64,000 nt of DNA from a virus, in IMG/VR virus record IMGVR_UViG_3300021977_000001. One strand, given 5' to 3'. The position numbers and the translations under genes were made by a program. The notes beneath the pieces were generated by a model that saw only the letters and a program-made list of their open reading frames with translations, was not told the origin of the DNA and ran no database searches. Shown in pieces: positions 4,766 to 64,000 of this stretch. Position 1 is the first letter of the stretch. Each line of letters starts with the position of its first letter.

Positions 4766-4795
4766 ACGGCATAAAGTGGGCAGGTTGCCCTGCCC
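4766..4795 (-). terminator. hairpin + TTTATGCCGT terminator
   Basis: GGGCAGG-GCAA-CCTGCCC then ACTTTATGCCGT, after the dcd stop. Confidence 0.7.
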
Positions 4796-5912: not shown

Positions 5913-5947
5913 ACGGCATAAGGGATGCAAGGTTACCCCCACATCCC
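5913..5947 (-). terminator. hairpin + TTATGCCGT terminator
   Basis: GGGATG-TGGGG-GTAA-CCTTG-CATCCC (G-U pairs) followed by TTATGCCGT. Confidence 0.6.
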
Positions 5948-14963: not shown

Positions 14964-16499
14964 CTACGCGTACTGTGTTGGACGGTTCGCGGTTAACATT
15001 AAACTGGCAACCGTAAAACGGGAGACTTCTATGTTGTTCTTGTATTGCGCATTTGTACCTTTGATTTTAGCCACCGCGTCCCAAAACTGACGTTTAGGCA
15101 ACCTGCCATCGTCCAGTAAGTTTAGTAGCGGGTCATCTTTTAACTTAGGTTCTAAGGCGCTTAACAAGATACGTGCAAATTCTCCATTAAGTCGTATATC
15201 TTCAAGGCTATCTTCATTTAGTAAAGATAGGTCATTATAAACGCCGACTCGTAAGTGATAGACACGACGCAACGATAGATCTATAGTGGTAAATAGATTA
15301 CCTTGATCATCCATCTCCAACACGCTATCTGACATACGTGTATCATCCTGGTATAGGCTAAAGAATACGGGTGATGACTTTACTTTAGTGGCAAAGGCAG
15401 CTCTATCTTTAAGATAAGTAACCACTTCGTCAATTAATGCAAATTCCCCTAATTCTTCAATGTTACATAGGTAGCGTGGGTTGTCGGCATCAACCGCAAG
15501 TAATATACGAGCCATGGTGGATGTACCCATAGGTACGCTGCTGGGCAGCCACTCATCGAAAGCCGGTACTGAATAACCCATAATGGTAGACAATGCAGGT
15601 AGACGATGGCGGTTAGCAATAACATCTAAGCCTTGATTAAACGCCGTACTTAGGTACATCTCTAGATTTAAGTTAAAGTTTTGATTAGCGTCAAAGTAAC
15701 GCGCTTCTAATAACTGGTTATGTACGACTAGAGGATACTGCATGACGACCGAATGAGGACGATCGAATTGAACGATATAGTCAAATTGACTAATCCAGTT
15801 TCCAGTCTCTCCCTTCTCAAGCTCAGGTACTGATTCAAAATCAAAATACCCTAAGATATCGTGTTGACGTTCTCTGACACCTGGGGTTTTTCTCATACCG
15901 CTTTGATTAGTTAACCAGGTTACTTTAGGATGCCAATATTTATTTAGATACGTGCCAAGATCCTCACCGTAACCCGCTACGGCTTCACGACGTTGATGGA
16001 TCTGGTCTAAGATGACCAGCATCTCTTTAGGGATAAGGTAGTGATACTCGCTCTCATGCAGTAGCTCTTTAAACCCTTGTGCAGTACGTCGTTTAACTTC
16101 GCTTAACCAACGCTCCGCTGAGTTTCTACTCTGTGCTTTATACTTAACACTAATCGTTACCTGCGTCTGACCATAGACTGGTGAGATAACAACACCTAAC
16201 TCAGGATCTTTAAAGATAGGGATGTTACCTCGTGCAAAGATGGTGTTGGTCAACATATCACCATCCATGTATTGGGTTCTTACTTCTAATTGCAAGTATT
16301 CTTCATTAGTAAATGACACATCGCTTTCTTTACCATTAAGGCTGTTACCTATCTGGGGAGTGTTATCAGGATCCCCTGTAAACAATGTTTTAACCTTACT
16401 TAAACCTGTCACTTTCTTTACTTTCTCAACTACCGATAATACGGTAGGGCGGATTACGCTATCGTAACTGTCACCGCAATCTATAGCTATACGAGGCAT
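14964..16499 (-). CDS. virion structural protein (phiKZ gp98-like)
   Basis: MPRI...YDSVIRP, IFKDPELGVVISPVY, LMQYPLVVHNQ-like and PAFDEW motifs; synteny. Confidence 0.7.
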   Translation of the reverse strand: MPRIAIDCGDSYDSVIRPTVLSVVEKVKKVTGLSKVKTLFTGDPDNTPQIGNSLNGKESDVSFTNEEYLQLEVRTQYMDGDMLTNTIFARGNIPIFKDPELGVVISPVYGQTQVTISVKYKAQSRNSAERWLSEVKRRTAQGFKELLHESEYHYLIPKEMLVILDQIHQRREAVAGYGEDLGTYLNKYWHPKVTWLTNQSGMRKTPGVRERQHDILGYFDFESVPELEKGETGNWISQFDYIVQFDRPHSVVMQYPLVVHNQLLEARYFDANQNFNLNLEMYLSTAFNQGLDVIANRHRLPALSTIMGYSVPAFDEWLPSSVPMGTSTMARILLAVDADNPRYLCNIEELGEFALIDEVVTYLKDRAAFATKVKSSPVFFSLYQDDTRMSDSVLEMDDQGNLFTTIDLSLRRVYHLRVGVYNDLSLLNEDSLEDIRLNGEFARILLSALEPKLKDDPLLNLLDDGRLPKRQFWDAVAKIKGTNAQYKNNIEVSRFTVASLMLTANRPTQYA

Positions 16500-16572
16500 G
16501 GGTCTAGTTCCAATCTTTTATATTAATACAATCATACGAATTGGGTATGGCGTTAAATTCATACCATCACTG

Positions 16573-16620
16573 ACGGCATAAGTAGGGATGGTGGCCCCTA
16601 CGACCACCATCCCACCTACT
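16573..16620 (-). terminator. long hairpin + TTATGCCGT, closing the non-coding element
   Basis: GGGATGGTGG / CCACCATCCC stem followed by TACTTATGCCGT. Confidence 0.65.
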
Positions 16621-16865
16621 GACACCACGTGGCGTCTCAGCTAGCATTGTGATAGTCTGTCCAGGAACTATCGGCCGATAGGGAAAACCATGTAAAAAAC
16701 CTATCTGGAGACAATGCTAGGAGGGTACGGTTAAGGAAAAGCACGTGTAGGTAAATAGCCCAACCCAAAACCTACACGTTGTTATCAAAAGAGCGATATG
16801 GCAGGAAGACTCATGTTACGTCAACACACCGCCTAGATAACCAAAGACCGTTTATCCCATCATAA
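16573..16865 (-). ncRNA. candidate ~300-nt structured non-coding RNA
   Basis: No credible ORF. Nested inverted repeats: 16641-50/16711-20, 16651-56/16667-72, 16677-82/16700-05, 16743-52/16770-79, 16781-86/16836-41. Bounded by two terminator motifs. Confidence 0.55.
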
Positions 16866-16869
16866 CTAT

Positions 16870-16901
16870 ACGGCATAAAGCTAGGAGGTTTCCCTCCTAG
16901 C
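16870..16901 (-). terminator. GAAA hairpin + TTTATGCCGT terminator
   Basis: GCTAGGAGG-GAAA-CCTCCTAGC then TTTATGCCGT, after stop 16948. Confidence 0.75.
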
Positions 16902-16947
16902 CTAAGACCCAGATAATGGGATTTTTAAAGCACGTGATGCTTAACGC

Positions 16948-18282
16948 TTACGCTTTGTCTTTCTTGTACTGTGACAAGTTAGACTGAGCAACGCTAAGTG
17001 CCGCGCGAACCGTGGTCATCGCAACGCGAGAAACCTGAGCTTCAAACTTCGTTGATGCAGTAGTAAATGCAATGTTGAATTTCATTGCAGAATCTACATA
17101 GCTAGATGCAGAGCTTACACCGCTCTCTTCTTTGCTTGCATCTTTGAACTTCTTGTTCAACGTATCTGACGCTTTGATGATGTTATCCGCAACAGCTTTA
17201 ACAGCTTTAGCATCGTGGTCAGCAACCATGTCGCAGATAGCGATACAACGCTCAGCAATAGTTACTACGTCAGACGTTGCAAAGACTTCCATCTCTACTT
17301 CTTTGTCTTTAGACTTAGCTTCTTGCTCGCTAGATCGCATAACAACTAGAGACGCTTTACGTAGACGCTCAGCGCGACCTAGTACGTCTTCGTTTTCTTC
17401 AACAGGTGCTTCAACGTGGAAGATTGCCATGTCAGTTGGTAGGTGAACTGCTTCAACAGATTCAGAGCGGTTGAAACGCGTATCGCGACCTACTTTAACC
17501 ATCTTAACGCCTTTGAACTCACTGATCTCGTGAATACCAGCGTAAGCTGAGCTAACCGCGTCTAGAGAGCTGCGAGCAGTCTCAATAGAAGCTACATCAA
17601 ACTCACCAAGCGCAGCGTCGATGTCTTTACCTGCTTTAACCAACTGTTCTTTGTACTTGCCGTACAGGTGGCTAGAGATTGATTCAACTAGCGAAAGACC
17701 TTCGATAAGATCAGAACCTTTCTTAGGTACCTGACCATTTACAGATAGTGTCTTAAGTGCACGACCTGGTGAGAATGTTTTCTCTTCAGCCGTAGCGCTG
17801 CCTAGTTCAGTTACCTTTTCAGATAACGCTTCTGCACGAAGCTTAAGACCAGGCGCTGACTTAGTCATGTTGCCCCAGAAGATTTGGATCTGTTTCCACA
17901 TGTTAGCGATAACTTTCTTGATCGCGTCCCAGATCTTCTGTACGGTTTCTTTAACAGCTTCTGTAGAGATGGTTTTACCTTCCATGTCTTCAAGACCTGG
18001 AGCAATCTCTTCAGTACCAATACCAGTACCTACTAGAGCAAGGCCAAGGCCTGCATCAAAGAAAGCAAGGTCAGTGTTACGTGCTTCGGTAACGTGACCA
18101 GCAACCATAGCTAGGTTTTCAAGACCCGCTGCAATTTCCATTGCACGAGTGGTTTCAGCATCAGCTGCCATGAATTCTTGGAAGCTTTCTTCAGAGGCAA
18201 TCAGTGCATCTGTTTGTTCTTCTACGCTAAGAGCCTGCGGAGTAGCTTTAGGCTCTGCAGGGGTAACAAAGAAATTACGCAT
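16948..18282 (-). CDS. internal head (inner-body/ejection) protein, phiKZ gp93-97 family
   Basis: Acidic propeptide with repeated S/A/G-x-E sites, then STE|AVKETVQKIWDAIKK amphipathic helix. Confidence 0.7.
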   Translation of the reverse strand: MRNFFVTPAEPKATPQALSVEEQTDALIASEESFQEFMAADAETTRAMEIAAGLENLAMVAGHVTEARNTDLAFFDAGLGLALVGTGIGTEEIAPGLEDMEGKTISTEAVKETVQKIWDAIKKVIANMWKQIQIFWGNMTKSAPGLKLRAEALSEKVTELGSATAEEKTFSPGRALKTLSVNGQVPKKGSDLIEGLSLVESISSHLYGKYKEQLVKAGKDIDAALGEFDVASIETARSSLDAVSSAYAGIHEISEFKGVKMVKVGRDTRFNRSESVEAVHLPTDMAIFHVEAPVEENEDVLGRAERLRKASLVVMRSSEQEAKSKDKEVEMEVFATSDVVTIAERCIAICDMVADHDAKAVKAVADNIIKASDTLNKKFKDASKEESGVSSASSYVDSAMKFNIAFTTASTKFEAQVSRVAMTTVRAALSVAQSNLSQYKKDKA

Positions 18283-18370: not shown

Positions 18371-19684
18371 TTACTTGTATTGCTTAGCAGAAGCTGCCGC
18401 GATATCTAGTACACCACCTAACGCTTTTGCAGAGTGTGCAAGTAGCGCCATTGCTGGTTGATCAACCATACGTGTAAACGTAGGCAGCATGCGAACCATA
18501 GATTGCGTGTTGTCAGCAACTGCTTTGTCAGTGTCGTCTTTCAACTTACCTGACGCGTCTTTACCTGCTTTAAGAAGATCATCTTTAGTTGCGCTAGCTT
18601 TATCAAAGACTTTCTCTTTTGCACCAGCAAGATCGTCAGCACATTCAACTACTACATCACACAAGCTTTCGATGTCTGCAACAGGTAGAGTAGTGACTTC
18701 TTTATCGGCATCAGCGATTTCAACTTTACCTGCATCTTGAAGCGATGCAGAGTAAGATTTCTCACCTACTTGCATCTTAACAACTTTACCGCCTGGTAGT
18801 TCGTCAGAGTAGTACGCTTTCTCACCAGCTTCTGTACGCTCTTTAAGATCCAATGCGCCTTTGAAAAGTTCAGGTGCTTCGATCAATTTAAGACCAGCAG
18901 CAGTAACTAGCTCAGCACCTTTAGTACCGTCTTCGTCAACTACTTTAGCAACCATGTCGCCTAGTTCACCCGCTGTCTTAACAAGACCATCGTGCGCGAC
19001 CATCACGTCACCTAGAATGCCTTTTACTTCAGCAGCCACTGCAGATACAGAAGCCAGCTTGCCGCCTTTGTGTAGTTTAGCTACCGCACCACCAACTGAT
19101 ACTTTAGCTTCTTCAGCATCACCAGTCTTGTCTTTAACTGATGCCTTAACCGCTTCAGCACGTGCTTTGATTTTCTCAGCGTTAACGAAGAACTTGGTGA
19201 ACCATGCTTTAACCGCTTCAATGGCTTTAACCAAAGCAGCTTGAACGGCTTCCCATACGCGCTTGATAGTATCTTTGATACCTTCAACTGATACTTGCGT
19301 GGCTGTCATGGCTTCGCCTTCTGAACCAAAAGACTCAATAGAAGGTACCATTGCTTCTTCTAGGCCAAGACGATTAGCATAGCCTTCAACAGCAACATGC
19401 ATCATTGATGCAGCGGCACGTTTAAGACCACCTTCTGGGATAGTTGCAGAAGCCGCTACATGAATAGACTCAAGACCGCTTGCGATCTCAATCAGCTCGT
19501 TTACATCATGATCAGCGTGCTCAACACCAACCATAGCAAGATCAAGCTGAGCGTCAGCGTGTTCAAGCGCAGGACCTGTAAGGTCAACTTGTGGCTGTGG
19601 TTTAGCAACAGCTTTGTTTTGTTGTTCTTCAACGCTTACTGATGGCGCGGTTGAAGCAAGTAAAGATTTTAAACGGTTAGACAT
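18371..19684 (-). CDS. internal head protein, phiKZ gp93-97 family
   Basis: Multiple SVE/ALE/GLE/SIE sites, SVE|GIKDTIKRVWEAVQ; Ala/Lys-rich. Confidence 0.7.
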   Translation of the reverse strand: MSNRLKSLLASTAPSVSVEEQQNKAVAKPQPQVDLTGPALEHADAQLDLAMVGVEHADHDVNELIEIASGLESIHVAASATIPEGGLKRAAASMMHVAVEGYANRLGLEEAMVPSIESFGSEGEAMTATQVSVEGIKDTIKRVWEAVQAALVKAIEAVKAWFTKFFVNAEKIKARAEAVKASVKDKTGDAEEAKVSVGGAVAKLHKGGKLASVSAVAAEVKGILGDVMVAHDGLVKTAGELGDMVAKVVDEDGTKGAELVTAAGLKLIEAPELFKGALDLKERTEAGEKAYYSDELPGGKVVKMQVGEKSYSASLQDAGKVEIADADKEVTTLPVADIESLCDVVVECADDLAGAKEKVFDKASATKDDLLKAGKDASGKLKDDTDKAVADNTQSMVRMLPTFTRMVDQPAMALLAHSAKALGGVLDIAAASAKQYK

Positions 19685-26222: not shown

Positions 26223-26264
26223 ACGGCATAAGCTAACCACCCGGCCTCACGGCTAGGTGGTTAG
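26223..26264. terminator. bidirectional terminator between convergent genes
   Basis: CTAACCACC...GGTGGTTAG stem with TATGCCGT on the minus side and TTTTATGC on the plus side. Confidence 0.7.
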
Positions 26265-31274: not shown

Positions 31275-31284
31275 AAAAAGAAAG

Positions 31285-31322
31285 ACAGCATAACCCTCCC
31301 TACCCATTACAGGTAGGGAGGG
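31285..31322. terminator. bidirectional terminator
   Basis: CCCTCCCTACC / GGTAGGGAGGG stem; TATGCTGT variant on the minus side. Confidence 0.7.
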
Positions 31323-31327
31323 TGGTG

Positions 31328-31588
31328 TTATGCGTTTAGGTTCTTTTCAATAGACCTAAAGATAGACTCTTCCATCCACGTAGGAACAACAAAGAACACG
31401 GGATTACCGAATAGTTTAGGATAACCTACACCATCTGTACCGTTCCACCGTACGCCCATCGTTGAACGCCAAGTACCATCGTCATGACGATACTCACCTT
31501 TCACAACACTAAAGTTACCATCATCGAAAGCGACCTCAGTATTCTTCCAACGTTTAGCTTTTGTTACTACATCAATTGCGTTTGGCAT
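31328..31588 (-). CDS. small conserved hypothetical protein
   Basis: 86 aa, GVRWNG...GYPKLFGNPVFFVVP. Confidence 0.6.
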   Translation of the reverse strand: MPNAIDVVTKAKRWKNTEVAFDDGNFSVVKGEYRHDDGTWRSTMGVRWNGTDGVGYPKLFGNPVFFVVPTWMEESIFRSIEKNLNA

Positions 31589-31655
31589 ATTATAGATTCC
31601 TCAAATATATACACAACGTTAATTAAAGATAGATGAATGCCCATCTATCCGTTTA

Positions 31656-32197: not shown

Positions 32198-32238
32198 ACG
32201 GCATAAAACCAGCCTCTACCTGGAGGGATAGAGGCTGG
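32198..32238 (-). terminator. hairpin + TTTTATGCCGT terminator
   Basis: CCAGCCTCTA / TAGAGGCTGG stem then TTTTATGCCGT. Confidence 0.7.
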
Positions 32239-33703: not shown

Positions 33704-33734
33704 ACGGCATAAAGAGAGGGCTAAGCCCTCTTCT
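33704..33734 (-). terminator. hairpin + TTTATGCCGT terminator
   Basis: GAGGGC / GCCCTC stem then TCTTTATGCCGT. Confidence 0.65.
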
Positions 33735-59297: not shown

Positions 59298-59339
59298 ACG
59301 GCATAACCACCATACCCGACGCTAGGTCAGATATGGTGA
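59298..59339 (-). terminator. hairpin + TTATGCCGT terminator
   Basis: CACCATA / TATGGTG imperfect stem. Confidence 0.55.
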
Positions 59340-61570: not shown

Positions 61571-61604
61571 ACGGCATAACAGGACCACCGGTATCGGTGG
61601 TCCT
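61571..61604 (-). terminator. hairpin + TTATGCCGT terminator
   Basis: AGGACCACCG / CGGTGGTCCT perfect 10-bp stem. Confidence 0.75.
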
Positions 61605-62860: not shown

Positions 62861-63272
62861 CGATGCCATTCCGTCTAACATAGTTAGATTTTCAAGTAGA
62901 ACGCCACCTCTACCCCTAGCTTATGTTGGTAAGCCAGTTCCGATACTTTCACACCGGTCGAGACTATATCTTCCCTTACATGGTGTAAGGGCTTCCCGTT
63001 TCGATTTAAAGGCTAACGCCTACCCGCTTGGGCCCTACTCTACTCACTGCCAATTATATTGACGCTTTCGATAGTCGTTGAACACACTCCATCATCTTTA
63101 CATGTTAAGGAGCTTCGCTGCGACGATTACCCAATTCCTATAGGTTTTTACCATGCCTGCTACTTCCATTACTGGAGCAGGTATTAACCTACCTTTCGGT
63201 GGTTAAGGGGTACTATAAGACTCTAAGGGTGTTCCCGCAATTAGAGAAGTTTTACTTCGACAAGCAAAGCTA
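62861..63272 (-). mobile_element. ORF-less group I intron (412 nt) in the NADFDGD codons
   Basis: Exon ends in U, intron ends in G; P1 UUCGAU/GUCGAA; P element AAUUGCGGGAA; R GUUCAACGACUA; S AAGAUAUAGUC (P7 GACUA/UAGUC); splicing restores the frame. Confidence 0.9.
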
Positions 63273-64000
63273 ATCGAAATCAGCGTTGGGGCCAGACAGG
63301 CTGAGGACGCTCATGGAGATAGTTTGTATATTTGGATCCTTAATGATCTTAGTAACTCGCATGAACTGCGCAGACAACCGATGTAACGAGGGATTACGCT
63401 GGAGGATTGTTGGTATTCCTTTGCGTTTCTGATTAGTCTGAGCATGCTCAGCATATTCGTCAATCTCAGGCGCTTCAGCAATAAGCTCTTCTAGAAGCTG
63501 ATCAACCAATGGATGGTACTGGCTGATTGACTCTTGAAGTAGAGAAGCAGCACCGCGAGGTGTGTATCCTAGCTTCATTAACTTATTAGTTAGATGTGTA
63601 CGCAAAAGACCTACTGACAGACCCCATGGAAGATGTATCTCATCGTACTCGTGGGACTCACTCAACGACACGATAACTGCACGGGCGGTATAGTGAAGTC
63701 GTCCTGATATCTTGTGTTTACGGATAAACCCATCTTTAGACGCTATACGTGTCTTGTACGTCTCCTCGTAATAGTTAGAAATCTGCTTAACACACTTAAG
63801 TGTTCGATTCTCCAACTGTTTAGGCATCAGAGGCTTGATAGCCTGTTTAATAGACGACATCGTTCTTACTGCATTAATAGCAAGTGAGGTAGATGTATCT
63901 GATGTTAACGTAGAGTCGTTTTGTTCCGTAACGAACGCCACCTTAGATGGAATAGGCAGGTATTCGCTAAAGATACAATGACGATACTTGCGCATGGTCA
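63273..64000 (-). CDS. non-virion RNAP beta' (phiKZ gp55-like), 5' exon, truncated by the window edge
   Basis: GFIRKHKISGRLHYTARAVI, LQRNPSLHRLS, GPNADFD; frame still open upstream of ATG 63995. Confidence 0.9.

Follow-up and report, generated by a model that had tools for sequence, protein, structure and literature searches.

Several kinds of structured RNA encoded by phages have been described. The pRNA of phi29 (RF00044) is a stand-alone RNA with a three-way junction; it is 120-174 nt long, small podoviruses encode it at their genome end, and its copies join into oligomers via complementary loops. ROOL (~580 nt) and GOLLD (~800 nt) are complex multi-helix RNAs carried by phages and prophages. 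The put RNA of HK022 and the EAR RNA of Bacillus are structured elements ahead of terminator-separated genes; they are ~70-120 nt long, lie next to the promoter at the operon start and act in cis. Regulators of the S. aureus RNAIII type use C/U-rich anti-Shine-Dalgarno loops. A count made in 2021 gives 21 known phage ncRNAs (PMC8545117). Further candidates come from nucleus-forming jumbo phages, namely 3'UTR_PHIKZ298 and 5'UTR_gp40 of phiKZ, and sRNA005 with ten others of 201phi2-1 (PMC8545117, PMC10914365, PMC11512511). These candidates are ORF-less, run from a start motif to a hairpin terminator and lie beside structural genes; they are 89 to ~250 nt long and were found by transcriptomics, with little or no covariation evidence.

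Here we analyse a locus in a 64-kb stretch of DNA (the window) from an uncultured marine phiKZ-like jumbo phage. Our comparison of related sequences suggests that positions 16581-16874 on the minus strand are probably a gene for a ~290-nt structured ncRNA, a member of a new family confined to a small clade of such phages. The unit resembles the phiKZ and 201phi2-1 candidates in its layout, with a start motif (TATG at 16874-77 or 16861-64) and a hairpin terminator (16585-16613) and no ORF between them, beside structural genes of a nucleus-forming jumbo phage. It differs from them in being larger, with nine helices, in showing no similarity to them in sequence, and in being known from covariation, not from expression.

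The unit lies in an ORF-free gap of 448 nt (16500-16947) among genes that are all on the minus strand, and is flanked by genes for phiKZ_IP and virion proteins. The phiKZ_IP annotation has an E-value of 1.8e-28 (Pfam PF12699), and a further flanking gene encodes a head-tail-joining-type virion protein. The features of the locus are as follows.

18371-19684, minus strand: gene for phiKZ_IP internal head protein, paralogue 1 (Pfam PF12699)
16948-18282, minus strand: gene for phiKZ_IP internal head protein, paralogue 2, 444 aa (Pfam PF12699)
16880-16901, minus strand: hairpin of cassette 1, GCUAGGAGG-GAAA-CCUCCUAGC, a perfect 9 bp, kept in L015, L006 and L021
16870-16877, minus strand: TATGCCGT motif of cassette 1, with TATG at 16874-77 and G16874 as candidate +1
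16861-16864, minus strand: second TATG, 13 nt beyond the first and shared by all four lineages; an alternative start candidate
16581-16874, minus strand: putative body of the ncRNA, ~290 nt, helices P1-P9, marked by covariation, an excess of G-U pairs and no conserved ORF
16573-16580, minus strand: TATGCCGT motif of cassette 2, with the 511-aa gene following 81 nt downstream
14964-16499, minus strand: gene for a 511-aa protein (PHROG 3289)

The unit fills the slot of a gene between two standard gene-end cassettes, each a hairpin followed by TATGCCGT (16880-16901 with 16870-16877, and 16585-16613 with 16573-16580), which agrees with the ORF-less, doubly bounded stretch described in the earlier note on this DNA. 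The hairpin of cassette 1 lies ~45 nt past the stop of the 444-aa phiKZ_IP gene, the 45 nt upstream of its motif have a folding energy of -23.3 kcal/mol, and it is likely the terminator of that gene.

Relatives of the locus were gathered by comparing the 511-aa neighbour with 5.8 billion proteins and by adding IMG/VR loci. This protein is at most 34% identical to those of cultured relatives, and only five clusters among the 5.8 billion proteins reach at least 50% identity to it. A 189-kb IMG/VR contig, G001, is 99% identical to the window and was used for genome-wide counts. The relatives form four lineages, ranked by identity of the neighbour protein.

Lineage A: the window itself and its 99% relatives
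Lineage B: L015 and L017, 84% identity
Lineage C: L006 and L018, 74% identity
Lineage D: L012 (= L021), plus L013 (cut), 50% identity

The gap is found at the same place in all four lineages, with lengths of 409-448 nt, and in each of them the inner unit has a hairpin+TATGCCGT cassette at both ends. The span from TATG to TATG is 297, 293, 294, 297, 297 and 300 nt in the six sequences. FLC9 and most of the phages with ~30% identity have a 70-130-nt gap at the syntenic position. In three such phages, L029, L030 and L042, the gap (at about positions 2170-2500 of each locus) is longer; the place of the RNA unit is taken there by a short ORF, conserved among them, of 53-66 codons (M..MTHGQM..). A separate observation concerns L072 (26% identity), where a 233-nt gap upstream of the homologous gene (2267-2500) consists of three long perfect hairpins with a mononucleotide-shuffle z of about -9.5; it is unrelated to the ncRNA unit.

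The predicted fold has two domains. In the 5' domain, P1 encloses the P4 hairpin as well as the arm made of P2 and P3. P5, P6 and P7 form the three-way junction of the 3' domain, after which come P8 and then the terminator hairpin P9.

16727-16851, minus strand: P1, ACGGU (16847-51) with ACCGU (16727-31), closes the 5' domain; the weakest helix
16781-16841, minus strand: P2 arm, GUUAUC (16836-41) with GAUAAC (16781-86); 100% paired in both alignments
16790-16834, minus strand: P3, 16825-34 with 16790-16800; 91% paired, 3 compensated pairs
16743-16779, minus strand: P4 hairpin, ACGUGUAGGU/ACCUACACGU; 96% paired, mostly invariant
16641-16720, minus strand: P5, outer stem of the three-way junction, CUAGCAUUGU (16711-20) with ACAAUGCUAG (16641-50); 7 of 10 pairs compensated
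16677-16705, minus strand: P6 hairpin, GAUAGG/CCUAUC with a U-rich 17-nt loop; 100% paired
16651-16672, minus strand: P7 hairpin, (G)AUAGU/ACUAU(C) with loop UCCUGGAC; 4 compensated pairs
16621-16636, minus strand: P8 hairpin, GACGCC-ACGU-GGUGUC; 100% paired, 3 compensated pairs
16581-16616, minus strand: P9, the hairpin of cassette 2, core GGGAUGGUGG/CCACCAUCCC (16585-16613), a perfect 10 bp; predicted 3' end of the RNA

All the inverted repeats named in the earlier note are present at the positions it gave: the perfect 10-bp outer stem 16641-50/16711-20, the GATAGT/ACTATC and GATAGG/CCTATC hairpins, the ACGTGTAGGT/ACCTACACGT hairpin, the GTTATC/GATAAC arm, and the hairpin at 16621-36, whose G-U pairing is indeed confined to the minus strand. 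The TATG that it had put near the 5' end is the second one, at 16861-16864. Two of its proposals fared less well. The closing stem of its second domain exists, but it has only 5 bp (ACGGT/ACCGT) and its register moves in the relatives. The suggested TCCAG/CTGGA pseudoknot shows complementarity in the window, but it needs wobbles and a 1-nt shift in the 84% lineage and is absent from the 74% lineage C, and we consider it unsupported.

The strongest evidence for the fold comes from compensatory changes. We built a covariance model from the window fold and aligned lineages A-C with it. In this structure-fitted alignment 90.3% of the cells of 68 pairs are paired, and sliding the 3' partners by 1-3 columns lowers this to 33-45%. 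Both sides have changed in 25 of the 68 pairs, and none of 500 shuffles matches the observed values on four of five measures. Because the model alignment is fitted to the structure, the same structure was also projected onto a structure-blind MAFFT alignment. There 70.9% of the cells are paired (39-49% in the controls) and 19 pairs are compensated (3-10 in the controls), and neither value is reached by any of 500 shuffles. RNAalifold on the MAFFT alignment likewise gives 19 compensated pairs, and when the window and L006/L018 are each folded by MFE, their differing sequences give the same helices. The covariation analysis of the same intergenic interval, a check proposed in the earlier note, thus yields compensatory changes in three lineages, which are the only independent ones that carry the signal and are too few for a statistic of the R-scape type. 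Selection acts on the fold, since the helices covary.

P5 has a wholly different sequence in each lineage, e.g. CUAGCAUUGU/ACAAUGCUAG becomes ACUGUCUGA/UCAGACAGU. GUUAUC/GAUAAC of P2 becomes GUUCAC/GUGAAC in L006 and L018 (two compensated pairs), CGGUGU/AUAUCG of P3 becomes CAAGUU/AACUUG, and A-U pairs of P6 become G-C or G-U in relatives. P8 changes from GACGCC/GGUGUC to GACCAC/GUGGUC and to GUCACC/GGUGGC, and its G-U pair, possible on the minus strand alone, is G-C in the 99% relatives. P1 is 84% paired with 2 compensated pairs in the model-fitted alignment and 44% paired in the MAFFT alignment, its register shifting between lineages.

Judging from these alignments, selection is also acting on several loop sequences, namely the P4 loop, UUCCUG in the P3 loop and UCCUGGAC in the P7 loop. 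In the P4 loop UUUUGGGUUGGGCUAUUU the last base alone varies (C in the 74% lineage). The 24-nt P3 loop (16801-16824) has (G)UCUUCCUG as its 3' part, seen as UUCC(C)U in lineages A-D, and the P7 loop UCCUGGAC is nearly conserved on a covarying stem. The U-rich 17-nt loop of P6 likewise stays the same. Unchanging loops on changing stems are the pattern expected of recognition surfaces.

Lineage D has a full-length match to the covariance model at the syntenic place, with 12.9 bits. A spurious antisense match scores 14.7 bits, so the match itself is at noise level. By inspection we found a P2-P3-P4-like arm in which the helices are entirely different (GUCUG/CGGAC, GUGGUA/UAUCAC and GUAAGGGGGG/CCCUCCUUAU), together with the terminator, a hairpin resembling P8 and the UUUUCCUGG loop motif. 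That D is a probable homologue is suggested by synteny, by its two cassettes and 300-nt length, by the comparable P2-P3-P4 layout and by UUUUCCUGG.

The unit could instead be an element of the DNA itself, i.e. a replication origin, a packaging signal or a set of cruciforms, as the earlier note had also entertained. The inverted repeats do fold on the plus strand as well, with z between -3.3 and -3.9. However, the lineage alignment has 23 G-U cells and 7 A-C cells; the opposite strand hence pairs worse, as expected if a minus-sense RNA, and not a cruciform or DNA site, is what pairs. There are no iterons, no AT-rich block and no skew turn at the unit, the direct repeats being chance matches of 8-15 nt only, and a branched layout with covarying short helices is typical of RNA. 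We therefore hold a DNA-level element to be very improbable. The compensatory changes, the excess of G-U over A-C and the lack of a conserved frame agree with the main proposal of that note, a structured ncRNA read from the minus strand among the late head genes.

A decaying protein gene or a functionless spacer would explain the gene-sized slot between two gene-end cassettes, and in L018 one frame is open for 98 codons. The near-identical L006 has two stops in that frame, and all the other frames of the unit have 2-11 stops. A decaying gene would be expected neither to hold its length at 293-300 nt nor to show compensatory changes, and we give hardly any credence to this reading. A small peptide encoded by the unit can be discarded as well, because there are stops in every frame and the lineages differ by frame-breaking indels of 1-4 nt.

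Folding energy gives a less sharp picture than the comparison. The 448-nt gap has an MFE of -161.6 kcal/mol (z = -6.4) on the minus strand and -130.7 kcal/mol (z = -3.9) on the plus strand, and the 294-nt unit folded alone has moderate and similar z values of -3.1 and -3.3 on the two strands. Among 2124 windows of 297 nt over the whole 64 kb (mean MFE -73.3, SD 10.0), those over the unit rank 2nd, 3rd and 5th by raw MFE. Thermodynamics alone is thus suggestive but not decisive for the unit, and the comparative data carry the argument. Another stretch, 31275-31655 on the minus strand, came up as a second structured RNA candidate (z = -5.5) and was rejected, as an ORF of 88 codons preceded by the ribosome site GAGGAA lies within it; a hairpin and a TTATGCTGT variant of the cassette motif form its end.

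The unit matches none of the known RNA families. We searched the region 16500-16947 with Rfam 15 (4227 models), as had been suggested, and found no match even at E <= 10, including none to pRNA (RF00044), ROOL, GOLLD or the group I intron (RF00028). ARAGORN finds no tRNA or tmRNA in the 64-kb window, and the unit is intergenic between two gene-end cassettes, all in line with the earlier reading that tRNA, tmRNA and intron motifs are absent here. The unit is like the phi29 pRNA in being a phage-encoded stand-alone structured RNA with a three-way junction, and unlike it in being ~290 nt long. Its place among head genes had led the earlier note to the idea of a packaging RNA. The P3 and P6 loops of the window share the 4-nt palindrome CAUG, which is not kept in L006, and we saw no covarying loop-loop complementarity in the unit. 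With ROOL and GOLLD the unit shares the complex multi-helix build and the carriage by phages. It would be a new family within the stand-alone phage ncRNAs, and these searches give no sign of a pRNA, ROOL, GOLLD, intron, tRNA or tmRNA.

The search does work on the DNA of the window, where its only gathering-level match is a group I intron at 62940-63281 on the minus strand (RF00028, 64.9 bits, E = 3.5e-14). An ORF matching Rpb1 domain 2 of RNA polymerase (63270-63995) is immediately upstream of the intron, which appears to interrupt the gene for the beta'-like subunit of the phage RNA polymerase. An intron in the corresponding gene of 201phi2-1 has reportedly been found.

The family seems to be confined to few phages. 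Among cultured phages the gap has no match by blastn, with 50,697 phage records compared, and the covariance model has no match in 22 kb of phiKZ or at the Eowyn and FLC9 loci, and no second copy in the 189-kb genome. A metagenome scan with an invariant 20-mer returned no new variants, only contigs of whole-phage DNA and chance matches; three of the latter fall in coding sequence that translates as IGFGLGY. An ORF-less unit of ~270 nt follows the IP-like gp122 in Klebsiella phage Eowyn (NC_070650, 94693-95051; L004:2346-2704); it is placed between two hairpin+TATGCTG cassettes and holds a G-rich stretch. This unit is not matched by the RNA model, and as part of a cultured phage it is a possible tractable analogue.

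How the RNA would be made depends on the meaning of the cassettes. In each, a GC-rich hairpin is followed after a fixed 1-4 nt by TATGCCGT. TATGCCG occurs 43 times in G001, and in ~36 of these cases a strong intergenic hairpin immediately precedes it. Of the 165 co-directional junctions 21 have a cassette, as do 13 of the 36 convergent gene ends, whereas none of the 34 divergent starts has one. Further cassettes in the window lie at 4766-4774, 5913-5921, 26223-26231, 32198-32206, 33704-33712, 59298-59306 and 61571-61579. The same composite of hairpin and motif is present in relatives at 25-34% identity, and phiKZ has its own version, hairpin+TATGTTGT, which follows gp120 and is also present where gp129 and gp130 converge. 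This gene-end distribution indicates that the cassette is primarily a 3'-end signal. The late promoter of the phiKZ nvRNAP is TATG, with the G as start site (PMC4666361; PMC12809450), and the terminator may be joined with the TATG of the late promoter in a single signal. Since the cassettes are general gene-end punctuation, a late promoter of the RNA's own at the cassette TATG is something that we infer only.

These data also bear on an account in which the same folded RNA has no independent gene. The cassette would then be a signal for termination or processing, to which TATGCCGT may belong rather than acting as a promoter, and the RNA would be a stable 3'-UTR-derived species, made by read-through of cassette 1 and trimmed between the terminators. 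Besides the constant position of the cassette after gene ends and its fixed spacing, a separate promoter-like motif, CCTAYATTAC, lies 25-40 nt beyond several cassettes. The validated phiKZ promoter P119L, at a divergent junction, has no hairpin and reads TATGTAGA, and the phiKZ gene ends carry the hairpin+TATGTTGT described above, one of them where two genes converge. 3'-UTR-derived phage ncRNAs are known in PAK_P3 (PMC10914365). Against this account, nvRNAP is established to start at TATG, a further promoter cannot be recognised between many of the cassettes and the gene that follows, and the second TATG, 13 nt downstream, is conserved in all lineages. The cassette 1 hairpin is also strong, so read-through may be rare. 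We regard this account as possible, though on the unlikely side.

Two side observations follow. CCTAYATTAC is found in G001 at 72013, 95528, 110448, 142128, 143634, 171620 and 182238, with window equivalents that include ~61540, 33740, 32240 and 4250, and it often has TATG or TGTG within the next 3-4 nt; from its sequence it looks like a separate promoter class resembling the early/middle TTAC-type motifs of phiKZ. In read-through transcripts 16854-16863 could pair with 16913-16922 in a 7-10-bp stem (AUCCCAU/AUGGGAU) enclosing cassette 1; this stem, partly kept in relatives, might be a processing site.

The position of the unit directly upstream of the 511-aa gene, and its end in a terminator hairpin, raise another hypothesis, in which the unit serves in cis as the leader of the virion genes downstream. 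Such a leader might resemble an attenuator or a riboswitch, or might work by processive antitermination of the put/EAR type past cassette 2 and later hairpins, and there are many hairpins to be passed in the late cluster. Prematurely ending 5'-UTR transcripts are numerous in phiKZ and 201phi2-1 (PMC10914365, PMC11512511). However, cassette 2 is a standard one with its own TATGCCGT and shows no specialised expression platform, and the sole alternative pairing found, of GGGAU in the leader with AUCCC in the terminator arm, spans 5 bp and is missing from the 50% lineage. P9, at -26.2 kcal/mol, is the most stable cassette hairpin in the 189-kb genome. The unit is like the put and EAR elements in being a structured RNA ahead of a terminator-separated gene, but with ~290 nt and nine helices it is far larger than they are. 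A cis leader is thus quite unlikely in our view.

We return to the reading of the unit as a gene for an ncRNA of its own. The RNA would be made late, along with the head genes on the same strand. It could start at the cassette 1 TATG (G16874), by analogy with the nvRNAP late promoter of phiKZ, or at the conserved second TATG (G16861), or could arise by read-through and processing of the upstream internal-head-protein mRNA; under all three routes it would be co-expressed with the late head genes. Its 3' end is predicted at the very stable P9 hairpin. We speculate that the RNA acts in trans as a ribonucleoprotein scaffold or decoy, its unpaired conserved loops on covarying stems binding a protein or nucleic-acid partner in late infection. 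This mode of action is weakly inferred, the sole basis being that the loops are conserved while the stems change. A still more specific proposal, and a doubtful one, is that the RNA is a component of head/inner-body assembly or packaging, with an independent pRNA-like role, or a late decoy for a host defence protein that binds or targets RNA.

Another possible kind of partner is mRNA, as the P3 and P7 loops contain UUCCU in the manner of the RNAIII-type regulators. The linker between P4 and P1, UUCCUUAA, is an exact complement of the phage's common ribosome site UUAAGGAA in the window only, and the motif is lost in the 74% lineage. Pairing of these anti-ribosome-site segments to 158 translation-start regions is no better than that of shuffled controls (z from -2.0 to +1.3), with z of -0.7 for the P3 loop and -1.6 for the P7 loop, while the linker gives -2.0 in lineage A, -1.4 in B and +0.8 in C; we rejected this idea. 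One strong candidate mRNA target pairs the P7 region with the ribosome site of a virion gene (G001 81649) at -21.2 kcal/mol. This site is invariant in all lineages and the RNA side degrades in lineage C, and the pairing is probably due to chance.

We know of comparative support for a complex fold in almost none of the known phage ncRNAs, and the unit, placed like a gene within the late head cluster, has nine helices and covaries clearly, although its reach is that of a small, uncultured clade. The cassette statistics bear on how a promoter of the phiKZ-type polymerase is specified by the four bases TATG, since in G001 the extended TATGCCGT is welded to a hairpin and occurs at gene ends only. 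Nucleus-forming jumbo phages carry out their own transcription, kept apart from translation, which makes RNA-level control or RNA-protein machines plausible in them. A pRNA-like role, if true, would have arisen independently in a nucleus-forming phage, and a decoy, if true, would be abundant in the cytoplasm, where the phage messages are exposed.
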